A stretch of 64,000 nucleotides of DNA from a virus: positions 12,515 through 76,514 of the IMG/VR virus record IMGVR_UViG_3300028812_000003. One strand, written 5' to 3'. The position numbers were made by a program, and so were the translations under genes. This document shows, piece by piece, positions 1 through 57,779 of the stretch. Below the pieces are notes generated by a model that ran no database searches, had not been told where the DNA came from, and saw only the letters and a program-made list of their open reading frames with translations. Within the stretch, counting starts at the first letter, position 1. Each line of letters starts with the position of its first letter.

Positions 1-2
1 CG

Positions 3-6590: not shown

Positions 6591-7252
6591 CGGGTCACCT
6601 CGTCCAGCAGCTCGCCGGCGAGCAGCGCCATGGGGCTGCCCTGCTCTATGCGGGGCGGGCGGCCGAACGCCTGCGCGTAGCCGTCGCGGCCGTCGCTGCG
6701 GGGCACCTCGGTACGCATCACGGTGAAGCCGGCGCCCGTCAGGTCTTCCCGCGTCTCGCGGGCGGAGGACGCGGAGCGGTTGACCATCGTCATGAGCAGC
6801 AGCAGCCGGGGCGGCACGACGCCGACGGCTTCCAGTTGCTCGACTGCCTTGAGCACCGAGCCGGCGCGCTCCAGCTCTATCGGGGTGGGCTGCACGGCGA
6901 GGACGACCAGGTCACTGGCGGCCAGCACGGCGAAGTGCGCGTTCCCCGACCGGCGCTCCCACGCCCCGGTGTCGATGAGCGCCAGGCCGTGGGGTGGGGT
7001 GAGCCGGCGGGCCTCGTCGGCGATGCGGGACGCGGCGGGCGCGCGGTAGACCGGGGCGCCGAGATCCGCGCTGTCCGACCAGGCGTACAGGCTGCCGTCC
7101 TCCTGCTCGCCGGGGTCGTCGGCGTCGATGCCGACGGCGGGGACGCCGGTGGAGCCCCAGTGCGCGAGCAGGTGACCACAGGTGGTGGATTTGCCGCTGC
7201 CGCCCTTGCCGATGACGCCGATGCGCCTGCCCTCGGCTGGTAGTCGTGTCAT
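6587..7252 (-). CDS. parA: ParA-family partition ATPase (short, plasmid type)
   Basis: Deviant Walker A KGGSGKSTT, IDAD, LIDTG, SDLVVLAVQPTPIE. Confidence 0.9.
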   Translation of the reverse strand: MTRLPAEGRRIGVIGKGGSGKSTTCGHLLAHWGSTGVPAVGIDADDPGEQEDGSLYAWSDSADLGAPVYRAPAASRIADEARRLTPPHGLALIDTGAWERRSGNAHFAVLAASDLVVLAVQPTPIELERAGSVLKAVEQLEAVGVVPPRLLLLMTMVNRSASSARETREDLTGAGFTVMRTEVPRSDGRDGYAQAFGRPPRIEQGSPMALLAGELLDEVTR

Positions 7253-12194: not shown

Positions 12195-12599
12195 ATGGTG
12201 ATACCGGTAACTGTCGGCGGGTACGCCGCGTCGGAGGTGCGCTGGCAGGACGACGCCCTGTGCAACGGGGCGCCGCTGGAGACGTTCGTCCCCGACAAGG
12301 AAGACGAGGCCGGTCTGGAGGCCGCGCAGACCTACTGCAACCCCTGTCCCGTCCGGGCGACTTGCCTGCGCTACGCCTTGACGTATGGTCAGCGTGGGTA
12401 CTGGGGTGGTACGGACACGGCGGAGCGCAGGCGCCTGAAGGCGAAGAAGAACCGGGCCAAGTGCCCGTCGTGCGAGTCCCGGAGGGTGGTCGACATGGAG
12501 GAGAGCATGGACGCCCTCTGCCTGGCCTGCGGCGTCTCCTGGCTGACCGAGGCCGCCGCCCAGCCCCGCACCCGGACCACGGTCCGGCCGGTGGCCTGA
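12195..12599 (+). CDS. whiB: WhiB-family Fe-S transcription factor with C-terminal zinc ribbon
   Basis: W..ALC...CNPCPVRATC...GYWGG; extra CPSC/CLAC; GAGGAG RBS before ATG 12195. Confidence 0.9.
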   Translation: MVIPVTVGGYAASEVRWQDDALCNGAPLETFVPDKEDEAGLEAAQTYCNPCPVRATCLRYALTYGQRGYWGGTDTAERRRLKAKKNRAKCPSCESRRVVDMEESMDALCLACGVSWLTEAAAQPRTRTTVRPVA

Positions 12600-12633
12600 A
12601 GGCCCTCCCCGCTGACATCGGGGAGGGCCTTCA
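12597..12633. terminator. Bidirectional terminator
   Basis: TGAAGGCCCTCCCC/GGGGAGGGCCTTCA 14-bp stem between convergent genes. Confidence 0.8.
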
Positions 12634-12721
12634 GTAGGGACAACGTAGTGGCCGGGCGTCCCGCTCAGTGAGGGGGCGCCCGGCCTAGTTGAAGTAAATT
12701 TGCCCCCGGGACAAGATTTCC

Positions 12722-13810
12722 TTACGCCGCGTGCACGCCGCGCGCATCCTGCACGTCACGCGCCCGCGCCCACGCCTCGGCCCACCGCCACGCGTTCGCC
12801 GACAGCCGCAGGCCCTCGGCCACCTCCCGGCCGGCCTCCGCCCGCTCCGCCCGCAGGGCCGCCGAGCCGGTCAGCCGCCGCAGCTCCCGGTACCACCGGC
12901 GCGGCGTGTCGGCGAGGACCCCGGCGCCCCGTGCGTGCAGCCGCACGTACTCCGCACGGGGCGAGGCCACCCACGGTATGCCGAGGGCCGACAGCTCCAG
13001 CGGCTTGAGCCACGACTTGGCCCGGTTGAACGCGGTGTCCGCCAGCGGGGCGATGCCGACCCCGACGTCCCCCGCCACGGCGGCCGGCCAGCCGTGCACA
13101 TCCACACCGGTGCGCCCCTGCGGGTCGTGGAACAGGCCGAACGCCACGCCCACCCCGGTCGGGTCGCCGACGACGCGGAAGTCCCCGCCCTCGGAGACGA
13201 GACGCGCGACGGCGCCGCCGAGGACGGCCGGGTCGTCCGGGTGGGAGGCGAGCGCGGCGGGCCAGCCGATGGTGTCGCGATCGACGCGGGGCACGCCGTA
13301 GTAGCTGTCCGGCAGGTGGTTGTGGATCACATGCCCCCGGCCGTGCCGGGCGTAGCGCTCCAGCAGCGCCGGGGTGGACACGGTGACCAGCGTGGCATCA
13401 CGGCACGCGGCGGCAAGGTGCTGCCACGAGTGCCGCCGGACCTGCCGCGTGCGCGGGTCGACCCTCCCCGCGAAGCGGGGATGCATCGACTCGTACGCCG
13501 GGTTACGCGGGTGGACGGCTGCCAGGTCGTCGTCCACGTCCACCACCACGGCGATGCCCTTGGCGCGCAGCAGCGGCACCGCCTCCGCCATCCACTGGTG
13601 GGTGAGGCGCTGGAAGACGAGGACGTCCACGCCATCCACGTCCAGCACGTCTTCCACCCGGTCATCCGCGCCGATCTTCAGCTTCAGCCCACGGTCGGCG
13701 GGCGGGCGGATCTCCACGTCGTGGCCGGCCGCCCGCAGCAGCTCCGCCGGCCAGATGAGCCGGAAGTGCCCGCACCCGCCCGTGTCCGCCGGATAGACGA
13801 CGACTCGCAT
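12722..13810 (-). CDS. Glycosyltransferase (GT-B/GT4-like)
   Basis: GCGHFRL, VDVDDDL, VTVSTPAL, GIAPLADTAFNRAKSWLKPLE...GIPWVASP. Confidence 0.85.
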   Translation of the reverse strand: MRVVVYPADTGGCGHFRLIWPAELLRAAGHDVEIRPPADRGLKLKIGADDRVEDVLDVDGVDVLVFQRLTHQWMAEAVPLLRAKGIAVVVDVDDDLAAVHPRNPAYESMHPRFAGRVDPRTRQVRRHSWQHLAAACRDATLVTVSTPALLERYARHGRGHVIHNHLPDSYYGVPRVDRDTIGWPAALASHPDDPAVLGGAVARLVSEGGDFRVVGDPTGVGVAFGLFHDPQGRTGVDVHGWPAAVAGDVGVGIAPLADTAFNRAKSWLKPLELSALGIPWVASPRAEYVRLHARGAGVLADTPRRWYRELRRLTGSAALRAERAEAGREVAEGLRLSANAWRWAEAWARARDVQDARGVHAA

Positions 13811-36753: not shown

Positions 36754-37761
36754 CTACGCGCCGGCGGAACCCCGCTGCCACGCCGCCCCGGAAGACGCGC
36801 GGTGGCCGCCTCCCGGGGTGTAGACGCGGGTGGCGAGCGCGGTCTGGACGAGGTGGTCGGAGACGGCGCGCGAGATGACCATGCCGGTCGCCGCCTCCAC
36901 GAACCCGAACTGGCCGAACGGGTTCGCCTCCAGGAACCACCACGTGCCGTCACGATCGACGGCGAAGTCCAGCGCCGCGTACTCCAGGCCCAACGCGTCC
37001 ATCAGCCGCTGCACCTTCTGGACCAGGGGCAGGCTGGCGCCCACGGCCTCGAACCGCAGGTCCCGCTCCGGGGCGGCCCGCCAGTCCAGCGCGCCCCCGG
37101 AGGTCACCTTGCAGGGGAACGCGCGGTCGCCGACCACGGTCAGCCGGACGTCGTACACCTTGTCCACCGGCCGCTGGAGGTAGCACACGGCCTGGCGCAC
37201 GCTGTCGGCCGCGTCCTCGATCTCCTCGGCCGTCGTGAGCCGGGCCTGGACGAACCGGGACGGGTGCGCGGTGAGGGTTTTGCACACCGCCCGGCCGCCC
37301 TGCTCCCGGGCGAACGTGACGGCACGGCTCGGGTCGTTGGTGAACAGGGCGGGCGGCGTGCGTAACCCGAGCGACGCGGCCAGCCGCAACTGCCTCGGCC
37401 CCGGCCTCGCCGACAGGGCGCGGTGCGGGTGGTTGACCCACAGCACGTCGTCGAGACCGAACAGGAAGTCCTCCAGGATGACGCGGGACTCCTGCTGCTC
37501 CCACCCGCCCGGCAGGCCGGGGTGCCACCAGAGAACCGACACGACCGACTGCGACAGGGTGGACCGGTGCGCGTCCGAGAGCGTGAACCGTAGCGGCTCG
37601 CCGTCCGAGAGACCGGTCATCGTCAGGACCCCCGGGCGCGCGAGGTCCGACGGGTCGACGCGGTGGATGGAGACGCCGCGTTCCTGAATCTGCCGTATCA
37701 CCATGTCGGCCCCGAGGTCGCCGGGGGAGGTGACGACAAGCACGGTGGGTGGGAGCGGCAT
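36754..37761 (-). CDS. ATP-grasp RiPP (graspetide) maturase, MvdC/MvdD-like
   Basis: WVNHP, GLRTP, YLQ..V.K.YDVRLTVVG, LDWR, LDF, WWFLEANPFGQFGF; in-frame TTA at 37363-37365. Confidence 0.88.
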   Translation of the reverse strand: MPLPPTVLVVTSPGDLGADMVIRQIQERGVSIHRVDPSDLARPGVLTMTGLSDGEPLRFTLSDAHRSTLSQSVVSVLWWHPGLPGGWEQQESRVILEDFLFGLDDVLWVNHPHRALSARPGPRQLRLAASLGLRTPPALFTNDPSRAVTFAREQGGRAVCKTLTAHPSRFVQARLTTAEEIEDAADSVRQAVCYLQRPVDKVYDVRLTVVGDRAFPCKVTSGGALDWRAAPERDLRFEAVGASLPLVQKVQRLMDALGLEYAALDFAVDRDGTWWFLEANPFGQFGFVEAATGMVISRAVSDHLVQTALATRVYTPGGGHRASSGAAWQRGSAGA

Positions 37762-41720: not shown

Positions 41721-42821
41721 GTGACGATCATGACCCCGGGACCCGGAACGCTCGCCGCCGACGACCCGGCGCTGCGCACCGTCATGACCCTGCGGGACCG
41801 GTTGGGCACCGTCGCGCCCCGTGACCCGAGGACGCGCCGGCTCGGGCCGCGCGTACACCGGCTGGACCTGCTGCACCAGTTGTGCGAGCGCGAGACGTTC
41901 GGACACGTCTGCGGGTGGCTGTCCTCCGAGCGGTTCACCTCCGACGGCACCCGGCGCGAGTACGCGGACGACGTCCGGCACTGGGCCCGCGCCGGCCGGG
42001 AGTTGGTGGGCACCGAGCCGTGGTACCTCGGGGCGATCACCCCGGACGTCATCCCGCACTGGCGCGCGTGGACCGACGACATCAAGCTGGGCTCCCGCCG
42101 GGTCAACCGGCTGTGCTCCTCGCTGACCTCGCTCATCGAGTACACCAAGTTCCGCACCCGGCTGGACATCGTCAACCCGATCACCCGGTACGACCGGCCG
42201 GTGATCGACCAGCACGACGAGACGGCGATGACGCCGGTCCTGGAGGTGGAGGAGTTCCAGGCCGTGGTGGAACAGGCGGCCACGGCGCGGCAGGCGTTCG
42301 TCCCGGTGCTCATCTACACCCTGGCCGGGCGGGTCTCCGAGTGCTGCGCGGCCGACCGGCGGGACATCAGGTCGGTGGGCGGCGAGTGCAAGCTGGACCT
42401 CACCCGCAAGGGCGGCAAGGGCCGCGTGTTCACCCTGCCGCCGCTGCTGTGCGAGCTGGGCGCCCGGTGCTGGGACGGACAGGAGTCCGGGCCGCTGTTC
42501 CTGGACGACGAGGGCCGGCCGATGGACCGGCACGCGGTGGACCGGCTGCTGAACCGCCTCGGCCGCGCGGCCGGCGTCCTGCCCGGCCGGGACCTCACCC
42601 CGCACGTGCTGCGCGCGAGCAAGCTCACCCACATGTACGACGAGGGGCAGAAGGCGCAGGACGGGAAGCCGACGCCGGACGACATCCGGCGCTTCGCCGA
42701 CCACAGCCACCTGTCCACGACGATGCGTTACATCCGCCGCCGCGACGACGAGGCGCTGAAGCGGACGCACGCGGCGGCGGCCGTCCGCGTGTACGAGGGC
42801 CTGGTGGACCGGTTCCTGTGA
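41721..42821 (+). CDS. Tyrosine recombinase (Xer/integrase family)
   Basis: Catalytic R (AGRVSE), K (RKGGK), HxxR (PHVLRAS), H (ADHS) and Y (TTMRY); start at 41721 or 41730. Confidence 0.92.
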   Translation: MTIMTPGPGTLAADDPALRTVMTLRDRLGTVAPRDPRTRRLGPRVHRLDLLHQLCERETFGHVCGWLSSERFTSDGTRREYADDVRHWARAGRELVGTEPWYLGAITPDVIPHWRAWTDDIKLGSRRVNRLCSSLTSLIEYTKFRTRLDIVNPITRYDRPVIDQHDETAMTPVLEVEEFQAVVEQAATARQAFVPVLIYTLAGRVSECCAADRRDIRSVGGECKLDLTRKGGKGRVFTLPPLLCELGARCWDGQESGPLFLDDEGRPMDRHAVDRLLNRLGRAAGVLPGRDLTPHVLRASKLTHMYDEGQKAQDGKPTPDDIRRFADHSHLSTTMRYIRRRDDEALKRTHAAAAVRVYEGLVDRFL

Positions 42822-45794: not shown

Positions 45795-47990
45795 TCACCC
45801 GATGGAGCGTGTCGCCGAGGACAGACCGCCGGCCACGGCAATGCCGGTCATGGTCGCCTTCACGATCCGCTGGTGCCAGGCCGGCCAGACCATCGCGTCC
45901 AGACGGTCCGGACTCCAGTCCAGCTCGTCGTACCAGGTGCACATCTGGTCTTCCAGCTCCGGGTGCTCCCCCACCATGTGCCACCGGCCCTGCTCCGAAA
46001 GGGCGCTGACCGGCTCCGCGCGGACCTTCTTCCCCCTCGTCGCCCGCACGACCTTGATGGGGATGCGCACGCCCAGGGCGTCGGCCGCCGCGCGGATCGT
46101 GTTGACGGCCATGTCCCCGCCGAAGTTGACCTCCACGCAGATGTCGTCCGCCTCGTGGTCGACGGCGGCCTGCACCGCGCGGCGGCCCCAGCCGTCCGGG
46201 GAGAGGTGGCACGACCTGTCGGCGAGGACGTAGCCGTGCGCGAGCTGCGTCGGGCGGCCGTCGGCCCGCACGTGCTCCTGCACCGCCTTGCCGACGACGA
46301 CGATGCCCTGTTCGCCCCGGCCGCCCGACGGGTCCACCCCGACGGAGATCCGTGCGAGGTCGGGCAGGTCGCTCGGGCGCACCCGGTGGTCGTCGATCAT
46401 CGCGCGGTTCCACAGCGCGTTCTCGTCGGCGTCGATGATCTCCGCGTGGAGTTCCTGCCGACCGATCTGCGTGCCCGCATAGGCGTCCTCCAGCGCGGCC
46501 CGGATGTCTTCGGGCAGGTGGGGGTTGTCGTACATGGACGCGTGCGTGCGCACGACGTTGCCCACACCGCCGGCCGCGAGTTTCTTGATCAGGGCCCGGG
46601 GCTTGGGGGTGGTGGAGGCGATCCAGTGCGGGCGTGGGCCGACGCGTAGGCCGAACCGCATCTGGTCCCAGGTGTCGTCCAGGTAGCGCCACGCGGCCAG
46701 CTCCTCCAGCCACGCAAGGCAGTTGGAGACGAGCAGGCCGCCCGCGAAGAACTCGTGATCGTGTTCAATCGTCAGGTCGTACACGCGCACGGCGCGACTG
46801 GTACGCGAGGACCGAAGTGCACCGGCGCGAACAAGTGCGGGTCGGGTTCCGGCGCTGGCACTCGAACGCGTCGCCGCACACGCCGCACACCCGCTGCTCC
46901 CGTGCTCGTGACGGAGCAACAGCCTCCCGGCAGGCTCCGGGGCAGTACCGCGCTCCGGTCGTCCCTCGGGAGCGGAAGACTGCGCCGCACCGCTGACAGG
47001 TGAAGTCCCGGTATTCCGCGCGGTCCCAGGTTGCCCGGCCGCCCTTACGGTGCCAGTCCTCTCCGCGCTCCTCGCCGTGCTCGTGCCAATGCTGGCCCGG
47101 CGCGAGCAGCACGAAGTTGCTGACCCGGTTGTCCCGCTTGTTGTGGTTGCGGTGGTGCACTTGCATGCCTGCGGGGATCGGACCGACCTCCCGCGCGTAC
47201 ATGTACCGGTGCAGCAGTCCGTGCCGCGTGCTCCGGTAGTAGTCGTCCGGGCCTGCATGCCAGGTGACGCCGTCGTACCGTATCGAATCCCCGTATTTCC
47301 CCATGTAAAGATTGTCTCCGTTGGCTGAACGAGCGAAACCGGCTTCCAGCCGTCGGCCGTCGCCACCTTGTGATCCGGCGTGAGCCACGTGGACCCCGCG
47401 TCGTGGTCGTAGCGCACGACGTCCTTGATGCCGTTGTCCCAGGCCGCCAGAACCTCTCGCAGGCCGTTGCGCGTCCACACGCGGTCCCCGGGCCGGATGG
47501 TCTCGATGGGTCTCTCTCCGTACTCGGTGCGCACCAGGGTGCCCTCGGCCACGCACCGGTTACCGCCGGACCGCAGGCGCTCGATGTCCTCCGGGCTGTG
47601 CGCGCCGAACACCTTGGCCTCGCTACCGTTGGGCCACTTGATGATCGTGCCGCCCTGGCGGGTCGTCATCTTCGCCTCGGGGCTGTGCACCCGCAGGCCG
47701 GACGGGCCGGCGTAGCAGGACGTCGCCGCGTCGCCGAGGGTGGGCGCGATGATCCCGATCCAGTGCGGGATGGGACCGGGCAGGCACGGCGGGCCCATGA
47801 CGTGCTCGTGGACGTACCGCGCGCACGCGTCGGTCTTCCCGGCGCCTCGCCCGGCCAGCAGCAGCCATCCGTACCAGTCGCCGGGCGGCGGGACCTGGTG
47901 GGGCAGCGGAGTCCAGCGCGGCTCCGTCAGCGTCCGCGCGTGCATGAGCAGCTTCTCCGCCGCGCGGCTCCTCAGCCTCGTGTCCGCCAT
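45795..47990 (-). CDS. Terminase large subunit, intein-containing
   Basis: Walker A AGRGAGKT, Walker B WLEE, TTP, VGVDPS, SPDRLDAMVW; start at 47990 or 47999. Confidence 0.93.
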   Translation of the reverse strand: MADTRLRSRAAEKLLMHARTLTEPRWTPLPHQVPPPGDWYGWLLLAGRGAGKTDACARYVHEHVMGPPCLPGPIPHWIGIIAPTLGDAATSCYAGPSGLRVHSPEAKMTTRQGGTIIKWPNGSEAKVFGAHSPEDIERLRSGGNRCVAEGTLVRTEYGERPIETIRPGDRVWTRNGLREVLAAWDNGIKDVVRYDHDAGSTWLTPDHKVATADGWKPVSLVQPTETIFTWGNTGIRYGTTASPGMQARTTTTGARGTDCCTGTCTRGRSVRSPQACKCTTATTTSGTTGSATSCCSRRASIGTSTARSAERTGTVRAAGQPGTARNTGTSPVSGAAQSSAPEGRPERGTAPEPAGRLLLRHEHGSSGCAACAATRSSASAGTRPALVRAGALRSSRTSRAVRVYDLTIEHDHEFFAGGLLVSNCLAWLEELAAWRYLDDTWDQMRFGLRVGPRPHWIASTTPKPRALIKKLAAGGVGNVVRTHASMYDNPHLPEDIRAALEDAYAGTQIGRQELHAEIIDADENALWNRAMIDDHRVRPSDLPDLARISVGVDPSGGRGEQGIVVVGKAVQEHVRADGRPTQLAHGYVLADRSCHLSPDGWGRRAVQAAVDHEADDICVEVNFGGDMAVNTIRAAADALGVRIPIKVVRATRGKKVRAEPVSALSEQGRWHMVGEHPELEDQMCTWYDELDWSPDRLDAMVWPAWHQRIVKATMTGIAVAGGLSSATRSIG
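46722..47555 (-). mobile_element. Intein (278 aa) in the terminase
   Basis: Begins CVAEGTLV; block B TPDHKV; ends VYDLTIEHDHEFFAGGLLVSN followed by Cys. Confidence 0.9.
46765..47304 (-). CDS. HNH endonuclease with Zn-finger tail, nested out of frame inside the intein
   Basis: LHRYMY..GPIP..VHHRNHNKRDNRVSN; CQRC/YC..AC/CGVC/TCSRRC; GGAG upstream of ATG 47304. Confidence 0.85.
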   Translation of the reverse strand: MGKYGDSIRYDGVTWHAGPDDYYRSTRHGLLHRYMYAREVGPIPAGMQVHHRNHNKRDNRVSNFVLLAPGQHWHEHGEERGEDWHRKGGRATWDRAEYRDFTCQRCGAVFRSRGTTGARYCPGACREAVAPSRAREQRVCGVCGDAFECQRRNPTRTCSRRCTSVLAYQSRRARVRPDD

Positions 47991-48102
47991 GCCCGCCATT
48001 GTCGGCTGCCGGGCGGCGCGCGGTTTCCGGAGCACGACGAGGCCCGCACCGGACGGGGGTGTCGGTGCGGGCCTCGGTGGTGCAATGCAGACGGCGGCGA
48101 GT

Positions 48103-49355
<1,253 letters not shown>

Positions 49356-49375
49356 TCACGAAACGGCCAAACGGC

Positions 49376-50194
49376 TCAGGTGGTGGCCGGCTCGGGCAGC
49401 AGGCCGTGCTCACGAGCCTTGCGCAGGGCGGCGGGGCGGCGGTCGGCCTTGTCCATCCACGCCACGTCCAGGCGCCGGTACGCCTCGCTCAGCCGCGTGG
49501 ACAGGGTCCCCGGATGCATCTTCAGCTCACGTGCCGCCTCGGAAAGGGACGCCCCGTCCTCTAGCGCTACGAGTACTCTCACCTGCGTGTCCGTGAGGGT
49601 GACCGGGTTGGTTCGGACGACGCGGGGTTCCGGCATCCGCAGGCGGAGCAGACCCCGGGCGGCGGCCTCGCGCAGCGCGGCCTCACGGCGCACCGTCTGA
49701 GGCAGGTGGCTCACCCCGAGGGCCGCATAGGCGGACGCGGTGAGTTCCTTGACGACCTTCTGACTGACGCCCCAACGGGTGCAGATCTGCGCCACCGTGC
49801 GGCCGGCGTCGAACGCGCGCAACAGCCGTGTCTCGGCCTCGGACAGGGTCACCCGGCGGTTGCGCAACGCGGCCTCGGTCTCGGCCCGCTCGCGGTTGCC
49901 GCGTTTGCACGCCGCGCAGATCGCCTCGTCCCGCTTGATGTGGCGGCGGTAGGCTGCGAGCGTCCCGCAATCCTCGTACGGGCCGATGTGCCCGGCCAGC
50001 AGACCGTTGCGTACGGCCTGTGCGGCCGTGGACGCCCCGAGCTGACGGTAAATGCGATTGCAGGAACTCTTGACCCCGACGGACGTGACGCCCGTCTCCC
50101 GTGCGATTACTTCGCGGGGGCGGCCGACGGACAGCAGCCACAGCAGCCGGCGCTGGCGCTCCGTCAGGACGATGGGCTGAAGTGCTGCATCCAC
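49376..50194 (-). CDS. Regulator with three LuxR-type HTH repeats and an internal CGT..Y..H..CxxC motif
   Basis: LTERQ, LSEAE and LTDTQ repeats, each ending in Y..L(G/D). Confidence 0.75.
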   Translation of the reverse strand: MDAALQPIVLTERQRRLLWLLSVGRPREVIARETGVTSVGVKSSCNRIYRQLGASTAAQAVRNGLLAGHIGPYEDCGTLAAYRRHIKRDEAICAACKRGNRERAETEAALRNRRVTLSEAETRLLRAFDAGRTVAQICTRWGVSQKVVKELTASAYAALGVSHLPQTVRREAALREAAARGLLRLRMPEPRVVRTNPVTLTDTQVRVLVALEDGASLSEAARELKMHPGTLSTRLSEAYRRLDVAWMDKADRRPAALRKAREHGLLPEPATT

Positions 50195-50344
50195 GGGACG
50201 CCCCTCTCGTAGATTGGGTTGGACCCCGGGCCACGTCCACTGGCCCGGGGTCCTTGTCGACCGGCGACGGCCCGGGGTCGTTCCGCCGGGTCTGGCCGGG
50301 ACACTCATTTAGTTAAATCCCCGTTCCATGGTTTTGCTAAACCA

Positions 50345-51424
50345 TCACAGGGCCAGCCACTCGGGGTTGTCCAGCGACCAGCGCACGGTGGTCTCCAGCG
50401 ACTTCTCCAGGGACACCGGAGGCGTCCAGCCGAAGGCCGCCATCCGCGAGCCGTCCAGGGCGTACCGCAGGTCGTGCCCCGGCCGCGAGGCGTGGAAGGA
50501 CACCGGCTGCACCAGGGCCCGGACGTAGTCGTCGGACAGCCCCATGACCTCCCCGACCATCCGCACCAGTTCGACGTTGTCCACCTCGCGCTCGCCGACG
50601 ATGTGGAACCGCTCGGGCCGCGTGACCCCGTCGCCGTAGCGCGCCGGGCCCATGGCGATGCGGATCATGTCGCCGCCCAGCGTCCACACCTCCGGTTCGG
50701 CCTCGGTGTACCGGCGCGTCAGGTACAGCCACGCGTCGGCGAGGTTGCGCGCGTGCAGGTAGAACCGTGAACCGGGCGTGCCGTCGAGCGCGGTGTGCAC
50801 GGTGATCGGCAAGCCGTCCCGCAGGCCCCGGACGACCATCGGGAGGAACTTCTCGGGGTCCTGCGTCTCGCCGATGATGTTCATCGTGTTGGTGAGGACG
50901 AGGGGCACGTCATAGGTCCGCCAGTAGCTGACGGCGATGGACTCCTGCGCCGCCTTGCTCGCGGAATACGGGTTGGACGGCACGGCCGTCTCCCACTCGG
51001 TGTGCCGGTGGTCGCCGTACGCCGGACCGTACACCTCGTCGGTGGACATCTGGAGGAACAGGCGCGGCCGGATCTCCCGCGCGACCTCCAGCACGTGGAG
51101 CATCAGGGCGACGTTGTTCTGCACGAAGTCGACGGGGTGGGCGATGGACCGGTCCACGTGCGACTCGCTGGCGACGTTCATGATGACGTCGCAGTCCCCG
51201 AACATGTGCAGGGTCAGCGGGTCCGCCGGGGCGCGCATGTCCCAGTGGACGATGTCCACGCGCTTGCCCCAGTCGGTGTCGCACACGGCGGAGGCGACAC
51301 GGGCGGGCAGCCCCTTGTGCCGGAAGGACACCGGGCAGACGATCTCCCAGTCCGTGCGGGCGAGCAGGTGACGCAGGACGTGCGAGCCGACGAACCCGGC
51401 CGCCCCGGTGAGCAGGACGCGCAT
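50345..51424 (-). CDS. rmlB: dTDP-glucose 4,6-dehydratase-like NAD-dependent enzyme
   Basis: TGAAGFVGSH, ASESHVDRSI, STDEVYG, PYSASKAA, RPGHDLRYALD. Confidence 0.85.
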   Translation of the reverse strand: MRVLLTGAAGFVGSHVLRHLLARTDWEIVCPVSFRHKGLPARVASAVCDTDWGKRVDIVHWDMRAPADPLTLHMFGDCDVIMNVASESHVDRSIAHPVDFVQNNVALMLHVLEVAREIRPRLFLQMSTDEVYGPAYGDHRHTEWETAVPSNPYSASKAAQESIAVSYWRTYDVPLVLTNTMNIIGETQDPEKFLPMVVRGLRDGLPITVHTALDGTPGSRFYLHARNLADAWLYLTRRYTEAEPEVWTLGGDMIRIAMGPARYGDGVTRPERFHIVGEREVDNVELVRMVGEVMGLSDDYVRALVQPVSFHASRPGHDLRYALDGSRMAAFGWTPPVSLEKSLETTVRWSLDNPEWLAL

Positions 51425-51612
51425 GGACACCCCTTGTTCCGTGGTCTTTGATCGTGGCGGCAGGGTAGCCACGGACCGGGGAATCGCCGAACGGCCTGGA
51501 AAACGCGGGAACCGCCCGGTGCGGCGCCGGGCGGTTCCAGAGCTGAGGCGGCGTCAGACCGCCGTCTGCTGTGTCGTACCCACGAGGGCGGCGGGCTACT
51601 CCCGAACCCGAG

Positions 51613-51858
51613 TCAGATGCCGTCGACCAGGCTGCCGCTGTGCGTGCGCTCGATGTAGAGCACCGTCTGCTGCGTGCCGCTCTGGTAGTTGTCGCGGAGT
51701 TCGGTCAGCGCGGTCTCCAGGTACGGCAGGAACTGCTCCGCCGCCTCGCGCTGGGACGCGGTGTTCGCGCTGACGGACACCGTCACGGTCAGGTTGTTGT
51801 CGGTCCCGATCATGTAGCCGATGGACGTGGGCGCGTATCCGTCGGTGGGCAGGGCCAT
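51613..51858 (-). CDS. Small hypothetical protein
   Basis: 81 aa, AAGGAG RBS. Confidence 0.65.
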   Translation of the reverse strand: MALPTDGYAPTSIGYMIGTDNNLTVTVSVSANTASQREAAEQFLPYLETALTELRDNYQSGTQQTVLYIERTHSGSLVDGI

Positions 51859-51923
51859 GATGCTCCTTGGGTTGTCGGGCCCCGGATGATGCCACGGGTT
51901 GCCCCGCTCGCCTACGGCGCTGG

Positions 51924-52556
51924 TCAGCCGGGGTCCTCGCTCTCGCCGACGACCTCGCCCTCCACCACGCGCAGGTGCGCGCCGGCCGCCTCCAGCATCC
52001 GCTGCCGCTGCGCCGGCTCCAGCTCCACGGCGTTGGCGCCGGCCAGGATGGCCTCCACCACGACCGTGGTCTCCTCGTCCACCCGGCGGTCCAGCGCGAT
52101 GGTCAGCTTCTCGGAGGCGTCCGTGCCGTCGATCTTCGCCTGTCGCTCCTCGATGCGCATGAGCCGGTCCACGGCCGCGAGGACGGGGGCGCTGTCGCGC
52201 AGCGGCTGGCCGTCCTCGTCGCGGACGATCTGCCCCGCGTGCAGCACGTAGTGCGGCCGGGCGAGGACCGCGTGGACCTGGCGGCGCAGGCCGTCCAGCC
52301 GCATCCGCGCCGCCTCGCGGTACTCCTCCAGCCCCATCGCCAGCTCTTTGTTCGCCTGCTTCAGCGCGCGGGAGACGTCCACGCAGGCGGCGGCGGCCGA
52401 CGGCTGGCCGTCGGCGTCCAGGTAGTGCGGGGACATCTGCTCGGCAACCTGCTGCCAGGACAGGCCCCGGTTCTTCAACTCGATGGCCCGTGCGCGCCGC
52501 TGCGCCACCATCGCCCGGTGGCTCGGCTGGTGGCTGGGCGGGTCACCCTTCGCCAT
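51924..52556 (-). CDS. HTH protein, probable terminase small subunit
   Basis: RARAIEL..GLSWQQVAEQM; AVDRLMRIEERQAKIDG. Confidence 0.6.
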   Translation of the reverse strand: MAKGDPPSHQPSHRAMVAQRRARAIELKNRGLSWQQVAEQMSPHYLDADGQPSAAAACVDVSRALKQANKELAMGLEEYREAARMRLDGLRRQVHAVLARPHYVLHAGQIVRDEDGQPLRDSAPVLAAVDRLMRIEERQAKIDGTDASEKLTIALDRRVDEETTVVVEAILAGANAVELEPAQRQRMLEAAGAHLRVVEGEVVGESEDPG

Positions 52557-52577
52557 AGTCCTTAGCCTCCCTAATGA

Positions 52578-53480
52578 TTAACGGGTCTCGCGCAGGACGC
52601 CCTTGGTGCGCTCGCGGTACTCCCGGGCCCGGTCGATCTCCTCGGCCTCGCTACCGCACCGGGTCATCGCGGTGCGCATGTACGAGACGACCGAGATGCG
52701 TTCCGCCCCGCAGTCCTCGCAGTAGGCCGTCCGTCGTTCACCGCAGGCGCAGACGATGGCCGTGTTGCCGTGCCACTGATGGGCGTCCATCAGGATCAGG
52801 TCGCCGTCCTGAAGGTCCACGCCCACCCGGAACTCCGGGAACACGAACGTCCCTCCGGTGTACGTGCCCCGACGGAGCGCGAAGATCGTGCTGAACCCCT
52901 TGTCCAGGTCGCCCTTGTCGGTGTGCACACCGGTTGGGTAGGTGTTGTTGACGGTGACCGTCGTGAACGGGGTACCGGGCACCACCCAGTCCGGGTGCGT
53001 CCGCTCGATCTCCTCCATCTGCGCCGCGTAGCGCTCGGGGACGTGTTCCTGCATCGCCCCGGCTACGGCTTGCAACGCCGGGTGCAGCGCCTCCCACTCC
53101 GGGAGGTTCTTGCCGGTCCAGGCCGTCAGGCGGCAGAACCTGAAGGTGCCCCCGGGGTCGAACGCCCCGAGGATGCTGGAGCTGACCGCCTTGAAGTACT
53201 GCCGTTTCTGCGCGCCCGCACGAACGGCCTTGGAGCCCGAGGCGGGGCCCCGGTTCCCTGTTGTGGTCCGTCGCAGGCTGTGCAGGATCGCGTACTGCTC
53301 CTCGGTGACGACGTCCTTCATCGCGCCGGGTAGGTAGACGCACAGCGGTTGCCCGTTGGGCAGGAACACCCGGGTTGGCCCTGTCAGCTTCACGTTGTAG
53401 GCGTCGTCCCCGAGTACCTTGCCAGCTTTTTCCTCAAGCTCCTGCTTGCCAATCCGGGAGCGCAGACGAATAGAGATCAA
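52578..53480 (-). CDS. TET/JBP-family 2OG-Fe(II) dioxygenase
   Basis: PFTTVTVNN, HxD (VHTDKGD), distal H (WHGNT), RxS (RISVVSYMR). Confidence 0.85.
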   Translation of the reverse strand: MISIRLRSRIGKQELEEKAGKVLGDDAYNVKLTGPTRVFLPNGQPLCVYLPGAMKDVVTEEQYAILHSLRRTTTGNRGPASGSKAVRAGAQKRQYFKAVSSSILGAFDPGGTFRFCRLTAWTGKNLPEWEALHPALQAVAGAMQEHVPERYAAQMEEIERTHPDWVVPGTPFTTVTVNNTYPTGVHTDKGDLDKGFSTIFALRRGTYTGGTFVFPEFRVGVDLQDGDLILMDAHQWHGNTAIVCACGERRTAYCEDCGAERISVVSYMRTAMTRCGSEAEEIDRAREYRERTKGVLRETR

Positions 53481-54052
53481 CGGTTCACCTCCGGGGTTAT
53501 CGGCGGGAAGACGTCGCGCACCTCGGCCGCCATCTCCGCCGGGCTGTACTGCTCCACGTCGATGCACCGCAGCCGGACGCCCGGCGCACCGGCGGCCCAG
53601 TCGGCCAGGCGGGACGCCCGGGTGGCCGCACCCTTGCGCCAGGACGGGTTCTGTCGCGCCCCGCGCTCGCGCCACCGCTGATCCAGCAGCGCCGGTGACG
53701 CCATCAGCTCCACCACCGTGACCGCCACGCCCTGCTGCGCCAGTCCGCCGAGGAAAGGCCGGGTGGCCAGCCGCGCGCCCTCCCCCACGGCGAAGGGCGT
53801 GTAGCTGGCCGACAGAAACTGGAGCGCCCGGGGCCCTATGTCCATGGCCAGGGCGTCGGTGCCGGGGAAGTCCTCGCGGGGCACCCCGAGTTCCAGTCCG
53901 GCGGTGCGGCCGGTGGCGGGGTGGTTGAGACGGGTGTGGGGGACGGCGTGGTGCCGGTCCACCTCTGTGTCCCAGCCGGTGCGCAGCTCCCGGACAAGCG
54001 TGGACTTGCCCACCCCCGGCGGGCCGATGACGTACAGCAGGCCACGTATCAC
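53477..54052 (-). CDS. P-loop nucleotide/DNA kinase
   Basis: GPPGVGKST, FPGTDAL, GEGARL; GTG 54052 overlaps the upstream stop. Confidence 0.8.
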   Translation of the reverse strand: MIRGLLYVIGPPGVGKSTLVRELRTGWDTEVDRHHAVPHTRLNHPATGRTAGLELGVPREDFPGTDALAMDIGPRALQFLSASYTPFAVGEGARLATRPFLGGLAQQGVAVTVVELMASPALLDQRWRERGARQNPSWRKGAATRASRLADWAAGAPGVRLRCIDVEQYSPAEMAAEVRDVFPPITPEVNR

Positions 54053-54918
54053 GAGATGGGTCCTCCCACGATCCACAGGCACGTCGTGCCGTCCCGGCGG
54101 GTCCACCAGTCGGGTCGCTTCTCGTTCAGGTAGCGCACCACCTTGCCCTCGTAGGTGGGGTGCAGGCGGATGCCGTCGGCGGTGCCGGGCATCTTGTCGC
54201 CGTAGGAGGCGTATCCGGAGCCGTGCAGGTCCAGGTGCTCGTACGCCGGGAGTTCCAGACCCATGGCGGCGAACCGGTCTGCCAGCCAGGCCCTCCGGTC
54301 CGGGCCGATGCCCACCAGCACCGTCTTTCGGGGGCGGTCGGCCGACGATCGCTGGGCCAAGCCCATGAGCACACCGGCCGCCGTGTTGCCGGACCCGAAC
54401 GGCACCACCAGCGTCCCCACCCCGTCCGGCAGGTTCTCCGTCTGCCGGGCGGCGACCGCGTGGAAGTCCAGCAGCTCCTCGCGGGTGGCGGCGGGTGGGG
54501 TGGTGATGCCGTACTGGAGCCAGTACGCGGCGGGGTCGGTGGCGGCGAGCCTGCGCGCGTAGGACTGAAGCGCCGGGTTGTAGTCGACGGCCGCGAACTC
54601 CAGGCCCGCCCCGTGGTCCACGGCCATGCGGATGGACGGGTGCCGGATGGCTGTGGTGGGTTTGGTGCCGCCGACGACGACCGTGCAGCCGAGGCCGTGG
54701 CGCCGTGCGAGGACGGCGGCCATGGCGCTCTGCGGGGAGAGCACCGAGGCGGCGGAGATGACCCGCTTGGCGCCGGCGCGGGCGGCCCGGCCGATCAGGT
54801 GCTCGCAGGCGCGCAGCTTGGAGCCGTTGACGCCGACAGGCAGCGCGGCGAGGTCTTCCCGCTTGTAGAGACGGCCGCCCCGGTTCTCCACCGGGCTGAG
54901 CCAGGAGTTCAGATCCAC
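54049..54918 (-). CDS. PLP-dependent fold-type II enzyme
   Basis: SPVE..YKREDL..NGSKLR, PFGSGNT, HPTYEGK. Confidence 0.85.
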   Translation of the reverse strand: MDLNSWLSPVENRGGRLYKREDLAALPVGVNGSKLRACEHLIGRAARAGAKRVISAASVLSPQSAMAAVLARRHGLGCTVVVGGTKPTTAIRHPSIRMAVDHGAGLEFAAVDYNPALQSYARRLAATDPAAYWLQYGITTPPAATREELLDFHAVAARQTENLPDGVGTLVVPFGSGNTAAGVLMGLAQRSSADRPRKTVLVGIGPDRRAWLADRFAAMGLELPAYEHLDLHGSGYASYGDKMPGTADGIRLHPTYEGKVVRYLNEKRPDWWTRRDGTTCLWIVGGPIS

Positions 54919-55991
54919 GCACGCTCCCTCTGGCCGAGCAGCCCGTCCCGTACCAACCGGTCGAAACCGTTGGTGAAGCAAGGCCAGTCGTCCGCCATGC
55001 CGATGACCTGACCGGTGGTCCGGTACCAGTTCTGTTTGACCGGCACGCAGCCGGGGTCCCCGGGGTTGTCCTCCAGCCGCAGCCGGGCGGGCAGCGCCTC
55101 TCGGCGGGCGTCCCAGATGACGCCGAACCGCCGGCCGAACCGGTTCTCCGCACGCACCAGCCGGTCATGCAGCATGTCGTTGTAGACGCCGGGGTAGCGA
55201 CGGTTCGGTTTGTGCCAGCTCTTGTACGTGCACAGTGCCGACTCCAGCGACAGATAGCCGACCGTGCGGTCCCCTGGGACCCGGCGTCGCGCCTCGGCCA
55301 GCAAACCGTAGCCGACGGACGCCAGTTCGCTGAGCACGTCCGGGGTGTAGCCGAACGCGGGGTCCCCGAGCTGCTTGTCAGCGATCCACTCGTCCCGGCC
55401 GGCGACGAGGGCGAGGCCGTTGCGGTGGCTGCGGGAGCCGGGGATGTCCGTGAGCAGCAGCGTGTCAGCGTCCGGGGCTCCGCACTCCAGGATGCGCAGG
55501 TATTCCAGGTAGCTCCAGGTGGACAGCCGGCCCATGGTCGGTATCGCGGCGGCGGCGTCCCACCACGCGCCCCACTCGTGCGGCAGCCGGAAGTACCGGG
55601 CCTGTGCGTCCGGCCCCGGGCCGGTCAGCCGCCGATACCCGTCCACCGCGTCCGCGAACCGGGCCTTGTGGTACCGGCGGTCGGTGTCCCACTCCAGCTC
55701 GCGGTAGTGCCCCCGCCAGAACTCCACGGCCCCGTCCGCGTCGCCGGGGCGCGATGCGGCCTGCATGAGCAGCAGCGTGGTGACAGGGTTCTGCGTGTTG
55801 GCGTTGAGGAACGCCGCCCAGAATCGTTGCTCGGTGTCCCAGTCGAGTGCGTCGGCAAGGTGCGGCAGCGCGTAGTGCACTCCCCCAGGGAACGAGCGGT
55901 GACGCACCGACCACTCGTAGAACCGCAGGAACACCTCCCGCCGGTACTGCGGTAGCCGGAAGTCGAGACCGGCCGTCAGTGTGTCGCTCAC
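54909..55991 (-). CDS. aGPT-PPlase-like amino acid:DNA transferase
   Basis: WDTDRRYHK, GRLSTWSYLEYL, SHRNGL, ESALCTYK..RRYPGVY; operon context. Confidence 0.75.
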   Translation of the reverse strand: MSDTLTAGLDFRLPQYRREVFLRFYEWSVRHRSFPGGVHYALPHLADALDWDTEQRFWAAFLNANTQNPVTTLLLMQAASRPGDADGAVEFWRGHYRELEWDTDRRYHKARFADAVDGYRRLTGPGPDAQARYFRLPHEWGAWWDAAAAIPTMGRLSTWSYLEYLRILECGAPDADTLLLTDIPGSRSHRNGLALVAGRDEWIADKQLGDPAFGYTPDVLSELASVGYGLLAEARRRVPGDRTVGYLSLESALCTYKSWHKPNRRYPGVYNDMLHDRLVRAENRFGRRFGVIWDARREALPARLRLEDNPGDPGCVPVKQNWYRTTGQVIGMADDWPCFTNGFDRLVRDGLLGQRERAWI

Positions 55992-56815
55992 TCCTCGGCC
56001 CCGGGGTTGTAGACGGCTTCCCCCCGGCTCAGGCAGTCCGCGAGGGTCAGTCCCGCGTCCGCGCCGTCCATGACCGCGACGGCCACCCGGGCCGCCCGCA
56101 GCACGACCTCGCTCTGCGTCATCGCGCCGAAGTGCTCGCGCAGCGCCATGATGCAGCGGCCCAGCTCGTCGGCCTCGGCGTTGGGCATGGCGAGGAAGAT
56201 GTCCCGCACACCGCGCGACTCGTACGGCTGGCTGTTCTCGCCACCGAGGCGGTCCACCCGGGCCTTCCGCTCCTCGGGGTCGTCGTTGTACTCGGCGACT
56301 GCCGGGCGGGTGTACTCGACGACCTCTTCCTCCTCGTACCTCGCCAGCAGTGAGTCGGCTTCCTCGTCGGTGTAGCCGGTGCCGACCGGGCCGCCGTCCA
56401 GCGAGGCGAGCAGCGCGGCCAGCGCCTCGTCGTCGTAGGAACCGTCGTCGGCCGCCTTGTTGTCCACCAGGTTGATGCGCGTGGCGGTGGCGTCGTCGCA
56501 TTCGATGAGGTGGGAGAGGGCTGTCGGGTCGTCCGCCTCCACGTTGACGCAGAGTTGGCACGGGCGGTCGTTGGCCAGCTCCCAGTCCCGGCAGTCCTCG
56601 CGGTCGGACTCCTCGTGCCGCAGCAGCGCCAGATACGTGTGGTTCCCGGCGAGGATCGTCAGCGTCTCGCCGTGCCGGCGAACGGTGAGCGGCTTGTACT
56701 GCCCGTTCGCGCGCAGCGATTCGAGGATCGCGTCCACGTCGCCGCGCCGGGCGTTGCCAGGGAACGGTGTGAGGTCTTCCAGGGGGACCCGCTCGGTCCC
56801 GACGGTCGTGGTCAT
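55988..56815 (-). CDS. ParB/Srx N-terminal domain protein
   Basis: LTPFPGNARRGDV..ESLRANGQYKP..LAGNHT..LVDNK. Confidence 0.85.
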   Translation of the reverse strand: MTTTVGTERVPLEDLTPFPGNARRGDVDAILESLRANGQYKPLTVRRHGETLTILAGNHTYLALLRHEESDREDCRDWELANDRPCQLCVNVEADDPTALSHLIECDDATATRINLVDNKAADDGSYDDEALAALLASLDGGPVGTGYTDEEADSLLARYEEEEVVEYTRPAVAEYNDDPEERKARVDRLGGENSQPYESRGVRDIFLAMPNAEADELGRCIMALREHFGAMTQSEVVLRAARVAVAVMDGADAGLTLADCLSRGEAVYNPGAEE

Positions 56816-56887
56816 CGCTACCCCTTCACCCGGTCGGCGGACGCGGCGATGTTAAGACGGCGAAGGGCCATGATCGTTCCGGAGACG

Positions 56888-56927
56888 CGACGAAGCCCCG
56901 GGCCGGGAGGGCTCCGGGGCTTCGTCG
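56888..56927 (-). terminator. Hairpin terminator
   Basis: CGACGAAGCCCCGG...CCGGGGCTTCGTCG. Confidence 0.75.
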
Positions 56928-56941
56928 GTGGTGAGCGGCGG

Positions 56942-57403
56942 TCAGTGACAGGTGGAGCGCTTGGTCCGGCCGGTCTTCCGCCAAGGGTCCAGCAGTGCGA
57001 CGACGGCCCGCAGGGCCTGCCGCATGGACGGGGCGTCGGGGTCCTCGAACCTCCCCGCCTTGCGCAGGGGGTAGTTGTCCTGCGCCTGGTCGCCTGTCCT
57101 CGGCGGGAACTCCGTCCGGGTGCCCTCGGGCCCCAGCTCCCCCAGCGCCGTCTCGGCCCGGCTCAGCACGGTGCGCACGGACGTCAGCGCCTCACCGCTG
57201 TCCCGGCCCCGGTCCGCCGACGCTCCGCCCACCTCGGTCACGGTGACGCGGGGGCAGTCGTCGTGGTCCTCGACCGCGCCCACGATCCAGTCCGTGGACA
57301 CCCGGGCCAGCTCGTCGTCGCTGTAGTAGTGCTCGTCCGGCCGGGGCGCGTCCGGCCCGTTCCAGACGATGTCCACGACCAGCCGCGTGCGTCGCTCAGC
57401 CAT
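56942..57403 (-). CDS. Hypothetical protein
   Basis: MAERRTRLVV..., 153 aa. Confidence 0.65.
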   Translation of the reverse strand: MAERRTRLVVDIVWNGPDAPRPDEHYYSDDELARVSTDWIVGAVEDHDDCPRVTVTEVGGASADRGRDSGEALTSVRTVLSRAETALGELGPEGTRTEFPPRTGDQAQDNYPLRKAGRFEDPDAPSMRQALRAVVALLDPWRKTGRTKRSTCH

Positions 57404-57779
57404 CGGTCCCCACTCCCTCCGCCTTGCATCCGCAGGTGCGCGCGGGGCCCGGCCCGTCCGGCATCGTGAGTGCCGGGCACTCCGTGCCCTGGTGGACGAG
57501 GTGCCCGCACCCACGGCAGACAGCCGACTGCTCCGACACCGACCGGATGTCGACGACCGGGGCGCCGGCCATGAACCGCAGCAGTTCCGCCTTGCAGCCG
57601 GGGCACAGCTCCCGGTCCCACGCCGAACCGTCCTCGGCCGGGAGCCGGGACCGTGTCCAGCCGTCCGGCAGCTCGGGACGCGCCGTCGGGATGCCGGGGC
57701 CCACGGTCCCGGCGAACAGCATCACGCTGGACGTCTGTTCCTGGAACCCGCAGCGGTCGCACTCCAGGTGGACGCTCAC
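57396..57779 (-). CDS. Cys-rich hypothetical protein
   Basis: CDRC, CPGC, CRGC, CGC; GTG overlaps the upstream stop. Confidence 0.65.
   Translation of the reverse strand: MSVHLECDRCGFQEQTSSVMLFAGTVGPGIPTARPELPDGWTRSRLPAEDGSAWDRELCPGCKAELLRFMAGAPVVDIRSVSEQSAVCRGCGHLVHQGTECPALTMPDGPGPARTCGCKAEGVGTDG

Follow-up and report, generated by a model that had tools for sequence, protein, structure and literature searches.

Can a phage that encodes no hydroxymethylase acting on free nucleotides still build hypermodified thymidines, and, if so, from which base and into what product? This question is raised by a five-gene block at positions 52578-56815 of a 64,000-nucleotide stretch of viral DNA (hereafter the window), which comprises bases 12515-76514 of the 76,514-bp IMG/VR record IMGVR_UViG_3300028812_000003. 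The record is linear, about 93% complete, has a G+C content of about 71%, and derives from an uncultured soil phage of Streptomyces-like bacteria. Eleven DNA sequencing runs of soil metagenomes, dated 2019, contain the stretch (10 are flagged as possible sources), and the sequencing-run search listed no RNA run as containing it. The block encodes a ParB-like protein, an amino-acid:DNA transferase, a pyridoxal-phosphate (PLP) enzyme, a P-loop kinase and a TET/JBP dioxygenase. We consider it very probable that these genes form a post-replicative thymidine hypermodification cluster of the type that relies on a ParB-dependent thymine (T) dioxygenase.

Five translationally coupled genes and their products

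Five minus-strand open reading frames (ORFs) fill positions 52578-56815 exactly:

55988-56815, minus strand: ParB-like protein; ATG start, 275 aa
54909-55991, minus strand: amino-acid:DNA transferase; GTG start, 360 aa; four-nucleotide overlap (GTGA) with the ParB stop
54049-54918, minus strand: fold-type-II PLP enzyme; GTG start, 289 aa; 10-nucleotide overlap with the transferase gene, GAGGGAG just upstream
53477-54052, minus strand: P-loop kinase; GTG start, 191 aa; four-nucleotide overlap (GTGA)
52578-53480, minus strand: TET/JBP dioxygenase; TTG start, 300 aa; four-nucleotide overlap (TTGA), GGAGGTG upstream

Read directly at the junctions, successive genes overlap by 4, 10, 4 and 4 nucleotides. 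This confirms the coupling described in the initial annotation, whose coordinates span precisely the distance between the stop codon of TET and the start codon of ParB. The five family names given there were likewise borne out, by hidden Markov models, conserved catalytic residues or fold. Every gene of the operon has a Pfam or PHROG assignment; Pfam calls were judged against the curated cut-offs, which four of the five proteins exceed, the ParB-like protein being the exception. A scan of IMG/VR returned 63 loci with TET homologues (46-87% identity), and 14 of these carry all five genes in the order of the window. As the same order recurs in 14 independent IMG/VR contigs, the arrangement is not a chance one.

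The dioxygenase matches PF12851 at 64.6 bits (cut-off 34.9; E 8e-18), and a six-frame search of the record gave 66.1 bits for the same family. Residues H186, D188, H237, R261 and C275, which include the HxD..H Fe(II) triad and the 2-oxoglutarate-binding arginine, are invariant in 35 homologues. The AlphaFold2 model (predicted local distance difference test, pLDDT, 91.1; predicted template modelling score 0.89) found NgTET1, CcTet, human TET2 and CMD1 as top Foldseek matches, with E values of 6e-12 to 1e-10 and well ahead of FTO and AlkB. The closest relative from a cultured phage is that of Pelagibacter phage HTVC112P (30% identity), and a sequence search of the PDB returned nothing useful for the dioxygenase and no matches for the transferase. 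The protein extends 25 residues past C275, and this extension is modelled as a helix at 278-292. According to O'Toole et al. (PNAS 2026, PMC13229309), a C-terminal extension after the last conserved cysteine is found only in the ParB-dependent subclass. Between the second iron-binding histidine and the 2-oxoglutarate-binding arginine lies a four-cysteine insert, CxCG-x7-CxxCG (residues ~239-258; window 52707-52766, minus strand), which could be a zinc knuckle. It tracks gene order and lineage and is missing in a sublineage where ParB directly abuts TET. We rejected the insert as a mark of ParB-associated TETs, since a profile search placed ParB-like ORFs next to insert-less TETs as well.

The ParB-like protein matches phrog_723, one of the ParB-like families of PHROG, at 8e-40. 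No Pfam family matched it at E<=1, ParBc (PF02195) included, and there was only a weak Spo0J match (E 0.02). Its AlphaFold2 model, built from 26 homologues, has a pLDDT of 83.6, and the top Foldseek matches were the ParB proteins of Bacillus subtilis, Myxococcus xanthus and Caulobacter crescentus (E 6e-7). In a VIA alignment residues 4-162 of the model lie on residues 20-161 of ParB (6sdk) with Z 12.2 and a root-mean-square deviation of 2.3 A over 130 residues; 7bnr and 7bm8 also align (Z ~12), and the matched structures are of ParB with cytidine diphosphate. The model consists of a ParB/Srx nucleotide-binding domain (1 to ~125), two short helices, an acidic linker of low confidence (~161-210; pLDDT 53-73) and a helical C-terminal domain with three predicted helices (212-265). 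The C-terminal part gave no significant structural match, the alignment to ParB ending at about residue 162, and the canonical helix-turn-helix (HTH) DNA-binding domain is predicted from the model to be mostly missing. Residues N21, G25, S33, G57, N58, D118 and N119 are invariant in the 26 homologues. For ParBs associated with dioxygenases, O'Toole et al. (PMC13229309) describe an architecture that the model resembles: a nucleotide-binding domain is followed by a short helical segment, some 50 residues of disorder and a C-terminal domain, and an obvious DNA-binding domain is lacking. When the 63 loci were searched with a profile made from the ParB alignment, a ParB-like ORF was found upstream of TET in 51; in each of the other 12 the contig reaches less than 4 kb upstream of TET, so this TET lineage is essentially always ParB-associated. 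On balance, we favor a role of the ParB-like protein as an activator of the dioxygenase, with moderate confidence. As a separate observation, an insertion of ~25-30 residues with the pattern C...CxxC lies inside the nucleotide-binding domain (residues ~66-97); it is confined to the window protein and its four nearest relatives and is absent from all other homologues.

The transferase belongs to the amino-acid:DNA transferases (AADT), formerly called aGPT-Pplase clade 2. It scores 42.2 bits with PF18724 (ADDT; cut-off 26.2) and matches phrog_3271 at 1.6e-77, and the characterized enzymes gp247, gp51 and gp46 match the same Pfam family. Its E250 and C254 (motif LESALC) align with the Glu/Cys pair of M6 gp51, ViI gp247 and PaMx11 gp46, the cysteine column being conserved in 19 of 19 aligned sequences; this pair is essential in M6 gp51 and ViI gp247 (PMC8989533). 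Sequence identity is 55% to mycobacteriophage B4 gp3, 47% to MONT_42 of phage Montesquieu and 26% to the serine transferase gp247 of ViI, which is the closest characterized enzyme (E 1e-13, against only 0.04 for M6 gp51).

The PLP enzyme matches PF00291 (PALP) at 50.5 bits (cut-off 35), and its nearest solved structures are the D-cysteine desulfhydrase 4d8t and the 1-aminocyclopropane-1-carboxylate (ACC)-deaminase homologue 1j0a. It is 30% identical to the gp226-type enzymes of Ackermannviridae over 93% of its length (E 8e-43), and the comparison with M6 gp52 gave an E value of 5e-6. Its K34 aligns with K92 of ViI gp226 and K36 of M6 gp52, the proposed aldimine lysines of two proven decarboxylases (PMC8989533). 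The block KREDxxxxxxGxNGSKLR around this lysine is common to the window enzyme and gp226, which is nested within the clade to which the window enzyme belongs. Slightly better than even is how we rate decarboxylation of a DNA-bound amino acid as the reaction of this enzyme.

The kinase scores 88.5 bits with PF18751 (Ploopntkinase3; cut-off 27) and has the Walker A sequence GPPGVGKS. Mycobacteriophage B4 gp4 belongs to the same family (243.6 bits).

A predicted route on DNA and the systems it resembles

Neither PF00303 (ThyA) nor PF02511 (ThyX) matched anywhere in the 76,514-bp, 93%-complete record, and both controls were positive. The absence of a deoxyuridine monophosphate (dUMP) hydroxymethylase, first noted for the window alone, hence holds for the entire record. 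Lee et al. (2021, PMC8989533) described contigs in which TET_JBP lies beside thymidine hypermodification genes and a dUMP hydroxymethylase is missing, and O'Toole et al. (2026, PMC13229309) characterized a ParB-dependent subclass that is linked to kinases and transferases. The earlier proposal, that TET replaces the nucleotide-level hydroxymethylase and feeds the kinase, the transferase and the PLP enzyme on DNA, fits our evidence and these two papers.

The data show directly how the genes are ordered and coupled, their families, catalytic residues and folds, the lack of a nucleotide-level hydroxymethylase and the conservation among relatives. By analogy with the reconstituted pathways of ViI and M6 (PMC8989533) and with the ParB-dependent T-dioxygenases (PMC13229309), we infer which reactions the enzymes catalyze, which base they act on, which amino acid is donated and what base results. 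The TET/JBP dioxygenase, together with its ParB-like neighbor, would hydroxylate the methyl group of thymine in double-stranded phage DNA and yield 5-hydroxymethyluracil (5hmU). The P-loop kinase would then phosphorylate the hydroxyl group to give 5-phosphomethyl-uracil. Cys254 of the transferase would attack C6, the phosphate would be expelled, and an amino acid would join the exocyclic methylene. In the last step Lys34 of the PLP enzyme would engage the attached amino acid's free alpha-amine in a Schiff base, and decarboxylation would follow. The free alpha-amine needed by the PLP enzyme is obtained in M6 via a radical S-adenosylmethionine (radical-SAM) isomerase and in ViI via an O-linked serine (PMC8989533). 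A radical-SAM isomerase is not present in the operon, and the transferase and PLP enzyme are nearer to those of ViI than to those of M6 or PaMx11. Our best guess for the product is for these reasons the ViI-type base, 5-(2-aminoethoxy)methyl-uracil (an O-linked serine, trimmed), or a close analogue. The guess is a tentative one, and we expect it to be wrong more often than right: the transferase, at 26% identity to gp247, stands in a separate actinophage clade, so homology does not reveal its donor specificity.

The 5-(2-aminoethoxy)methyl-2'-deoxyuridine (5-NeOmdU) pathway of ViI/CBA120, with the kinases gp67 and gp243, the serine:DNA transferase gp247 and the decarboxylase gp226 (PMC8989533), shares with the window a kinase, a clade-2 transferase and a fold-type-II PLP enzyme. 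Both do without a radical-SAM isomerase, the catalytic Glu/Cys pair and the aldimine lysine are conserved, and gp247 and gp226 are the closest biochemically characterized homologues of the window transferase and PLP enzyme. Unlike the window phage, ViI makes 5hmU before replication by means of a dUMP hydroxymethylase, its genes are dispersed, it has paralogous kinases and a clade-1 aGPT-Pplase, and the identities are low (26% for the transferase, 30% for the PLP enzyme).

At the dioxygenase step the nearest published counterparts are the clade C1 T-dioxygenases (5mYOX176/ParB176; O'Toole et al., PMC13229309), beside which we set the window TET by gene neighborhood and published description. 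They resemble the window in an apparent C-terminal extension of TET, in a ParB neighbor of similar predicted architecture and in having no adjacent C5-methyltransferase, and they too were mined from IMG/VR. In contrast to them, the window order ParB-AADT-PLP-kinase-TET puts 2.5 kb between ParB and TET, and the four-cysteine insert of the window TET was not found mentioned in the consulted passages of that paper.

Related clusters are present in cultured actinophages. A five-gene system of this sort has been reported in Rhodococcus phage Tonitrus (genes 1-5; PMC11955845), and the genomes of mycobacteriophage subcluster B4 (Coopervirus: Prince, BrownCNA, Zemanar; genes 1-4) annotate such a system. 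The cluster type has thus been published, and the window is a well-resolved further example of it. B4 phages share with the window a ParB-like protein, a TET/JBP protein ('thymidine hydroxylase'), a transferase (55% identity) and a PF18751 kinase (38%), placed immediately before the terminase. They differ in mostly lacking a PLP gene and in the order ParB-TET-AADT-kinase, and their TET is only a distant relative of the window TET, with 31% identity over 124 residues and a score under the Pfam cut-off. Mycobacterium phage AlanGrant (L007) has a PLP gene 47% identical to that of the window, but its gene 1 is different. This gene (1-1440) encodes 480 aa, of which the first 162 are 36% identical to the ParB-like protein and the remainder has no assignment. 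Next come the PLP gene and a kinase of the PF18751 type; a tblastn search of this AlanGrant stretch returned neither a TET nor a transferase homologue. In Glutamicibacter phage Montesquieu (OV696619), MONT_39-42 include a transferase (47%), a PLP enzyme (38%) and a kinase (28%) in the same order on one strand. Montesquieu differs from the window in that MONT_51, a thymidylate-synthase-like pyrimidine hydroxymethylase, supplies 5hmU, in a clade-1 aGPT-Pplase and two kinases, and in lacking both TET and ParB over the examined stretch. Because Montesquieu pairs the downstream module with a hydroxymethylase and not with TET, this module appears to accept 5hmU from either source.

Exchange of the tailoring cassette and surroundings of the operon

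Close relatives share 72-87% identity with the window in ParB, kinase and TET, yet have the pair of transferase and PLP genes replaced. The replacement consists of another PF18724 transferase, nearest to the glycine transferases M6 gp51 and PaMx11 gp46, and a DAO-family flavin adenine dinucleotide (FAD) oxidoreductase that is 27% identical to PaMx11 gp47. It is a cassette of the type of PaMx11 gp46-gp49 (glycine:DNA transferase, flavin lyase, acetyltransferase and kinase; PMC8989533, PMC11472151), which is not in the window. Of the 63 loci, 25 have the window-type transferase and 20 the PLP gene; 22 have the other transferase and 12 the FAD gene. One PaMx11-type cassette lies at L010:4682-6432, where ParB, kinase and TET are 85-86% identical to the window proteins. 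The same record, Streptomyces africanus NRRL B-24243 contig_59 (L086; 92,743 bp), is a whole sibling element. S. hazeniae DSM 42041, Haloechinothrix alba DSM 45207 and Actinomadura rayongensis DSM 102126 also carry relatives, in large chromosomal contigs, and the occurrence of relatives in bacterial genomes makes a temperate lifestyle plausible for the group.

A further gene varies among the relatives:

L011:4835-5563, plus strand: 242-aa gene; also in L009, L012-L014, L045, L057-L059 and L065

Ten loci have this gene: in the five nearest relatives it separates the transferase gene from the PLP gene, and in five more distant loci it lies close to the transferase. It is absent from the window, and its protein matched no Pfam family; it may be an extra tailoring enzyme.

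Two features flank the operon:

56893-56923, minus strand: perfect 10-bp inverted repeat (GAAGCCCCGG ... CCGGGGCTTC), read directly from the sequence
51924-52556, minus strand: 210-aa protein with an N-terminal HTH; phrog_645 at 5e-14, only a weak Pfam match (HTH_23)

The inverted repeat starts 19 nucleotides past the upstream gene's stop codon and reaches to ~77 nucleotides before the ParB start; judged from the sequence, it is probably a terminator that marks the 5' boundary of the operon. As the hairpin separates the preceding gene from the ParB start, the five-gene block seems to open a separate transcription unit. A consensus scan of 49000-57600 found no sigma-70 promoter and no T-tailed or otherwise useful terminator, at the inverted repeat or elsewhere. 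On the other side, 21 nucleotides separate the TET stop from the start of the 210-aa HTH gene, which probably shares the transcript of the operon. In 20 related loci this gene likewise follows TET directly (identity of 87-93% in the nearest), and from its position its product is a candidate small terminase subunit rather than a modification enzyme; the large terminase is encoded about 4 kb further downstream, at ~45795-48242.

The phage also encodes a clamp, a large intein-containing polymerase, portal, capsid and terminase, and a tyrosine integrase at 41721-42821 (plus strand, opposite to the operon) between the terminase and portal genes. A search for the serine-recombinase domain PF07508 found none. 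A ParA-like ATPase gene is located in the left arm (6587-7252, minus strand) with an adjoining unassigned gene (5775-6590, minus strand). The integrase, the ParA-like gene and the relatives inside large chromosomal contigs make it plausible that this phage is temperate, possibly with a plasmid-like state. That the modification would be restricted to the lytic progeny of a temperate phage is speculation.

Several other genes were recorded. About 1.1 kb downstream of the operon is a gene for a nicotinamide adenine dinucleotide (NAD)-dependent sugar epimerase/dehydratase (PF01370, phrog_540; 50345-51430, minus strand), which is there in 14 relatives. A glycosyltransferase-like gene (phrog_7162; 12722-13810, minus strand) with no Pfam match lies near the lysis region, and these two genes could serve DNA or virion glycosylation. 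A 198-aa protein (3799-4395, plus strand) matches the N-terminal part of GmrSD (DUF262, ParB/Srx superfamily) and is without the nuclease half, and a 329-aa protein beside the portal gene (36754-37743, minus strand) has an ATP-grasp-type match, phrog_2599.

Substrate, final base and role of the modification

The initial annotation had named T or 5-methylcytosine (5mC) as the substrate of the dioxygenase. Of the two, T is clearly likelier, but an intact C5-methyltransferase at the left edge of the window had been missed:

window 1-824 (C-terminal part), record 12331-13338, plus strand: C5-cytosine DNA methyltransferase, 335 aa in full

This protein matches PF00145 at 51.6 bits (cut-off 22), the sequences FAGVG, PPC, QKRPR and GNAVP are present, and motifs I, IV, VI, VIII, IX and X can be recognized. 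The gene straddles the window edge 52 kb from TET; it is on the opposite strand and belongs to a different gene block. It probably stands outside the modification pathway; 5mC could come only from its product. In the four near-complete relatives with the TET cluster, a C5-methyltransferase is encoded by the two closest complete genomes and absent from the other two: PF00145 was not found in a relative with the full five-gene cluster (100% complete, with terminal repeats) or in a second one (92% complete) with the FAD-oxidase variant of the cassette. No C5-methyltransferase lies within 7 kb of TET in any of the 63 loci. T is favored as the substrate because the C5-methyltransferase is distant and is not co-inherited with the cluster, and because ParB association and thymidine-type neighbors define the published T-dioxygenase subclass (PMC13229309).

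Some observations weigh against a thymidine pathway of the ViI kind, the methyltransferase gene and the distance of the transferase from gp247 among them. Fold-type-II PLP enzymes usually perform beta-elimination or replacement and not decarboxylation. The kinase, correctly named a P-loop kinase at the outset, falls in PF18751 and gave no match (E<=0.01) to PF18748, the family of the characterized 5-hydroxymethyldeoxyuridine DNA kinase M6 gp54, which scores 65.1 bits there. For that reason its predicted role, phosphorylation of 5hmU in DNA, is assigned from context. In addition, both phage T-dioxygenase subclasses also oxidize 5mC in vitro, according to O'Toole et al. (PMC13229309).

This last property, together with the intact methyltransferase in the same genome and in the two closest complete relatives, would allow a cytosine route, in which 5mC made by the phage enzyme is oxidized by TET to 5-hydroxymethylcytosine (5hmC) and carried by the kinase, the transferase and the PLP enzyme to an aminoalkylated cytosine; in a variant, T and 5mC would both be processed. 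Burke et al. (PNAS 2021, PMC8256090) indeed raised the possible action of a kinase on TET-made 5hmC, and their clade A/B C5-methyltransferase/TET clusters for 5hmC resemble the window in combining a post-replicative TET with a phage C5-methyltransferase. In those clusters, however, the methyltransferase is adjacent and glycosyltransferases follow, whereas that of the window is 52 kb off on the other strand, is dispensable in relatives, and the neighbors of TET are of the thymidine type. All characterized AADT, kinase and PLP enzymes use 5hmU derivatives (PMC8989533), ParB-associated TETs with kinase and AADT neighbors constitute the published T-dioxygenase subclass (PMC13229309), and clade C TETs with their cognate methyltransferases gave no 5hmC in Escherichia coli, with ParB omitted (PMC8256090). 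We regard the cytosine route as improbable. A different last step is also unlikely, though less so: the PLP enzyme might be a beta-eliminase, a deaminase, a beta-replacement enzyme or a maker of the donor, and the final base would then differ from the ViI and M6 products. The nearest solved structures, a desulfhydrase and an ACC-deaminase homologue, and an identity of just 30% to ViI gp226 speak for this, and the extra 242-aa gene of the nearest relatives shows that tailoring varies within the lineage. Yet gp226, itself a proven decarboxylase, was modeled on the same 1j0a template (Lee et al., PMC8989533), nests in the clade of the window enzyme and shares with it the aldimine lysine and the surrounding sequence block.

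The thymidine pathway leaves room for more than one biological role. The modification may serve mainly something other than protection from restriction, namely sparse, sequence-specific marks for packaging, replication timing or discrimination between phage and host, with ParB targeting the enzyme. The operon lies directly upstream of the probable small terminase gene, with the large terminase ~4 kb further on, and B4 genomes show the same terminase adjacency; the integrase, the ParA-like gene and the relatives in large chromosomal contigs point the same way, and motif preferences and partial modification were reported, and an epigenetic-like role considered, by O'Toole et al. (PMC13229309). 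Against this stand the hypermodified thymidines of ViI and M6, which replace up to half of T and protect against endonucleases (PMC8989533). We hold such a role to be doubtful, at roughly one chance in four; it concerns biology and not chemistry and is compatible with thymidine hypermodification. There is, finally, a small chance, comparable to that of a different last step, that the lineage makes an uncatalogued base, either a product of dual T and 5mC oxidation that draws on the phage's own C5-methyltransferase or a serine or threonine adduct tailored unlike that of ViI. If so, the cassette-swapping relatives would be a natural combinatorial series in temperate Streptomyces phages, with ParB confining the modification to phage DNA in lytic growth.

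TET-initiated thymidine hypermodification has been demonstrated only as far as 5hmU, and the final base has been identified for no cluster that combines a T-dioxygenase, a kinase, a transferase and tailoring enzymes. The compact and apparently complete five-gene set described here is nearest to the reconstituted ViI pathway and gives a concrete mass prediction. To the known picture, which these findings fill in and do not alter, the window adds a Streptomyces-like phage in which TET is coupled to the ViI type of PLP variant, a kinase family that differs from the characterized one, a cassette swap on near-identical backbones and pointers to cultured strains. Cultured actinomycetes with sibling elements offer a setting for studying the chemistry and the role of ParB in the temperate state. 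Phages whose flanking genes are 72-87% identical differ by a swapped cassette, a clear case from nature of DNA chemistry evolving in modules.

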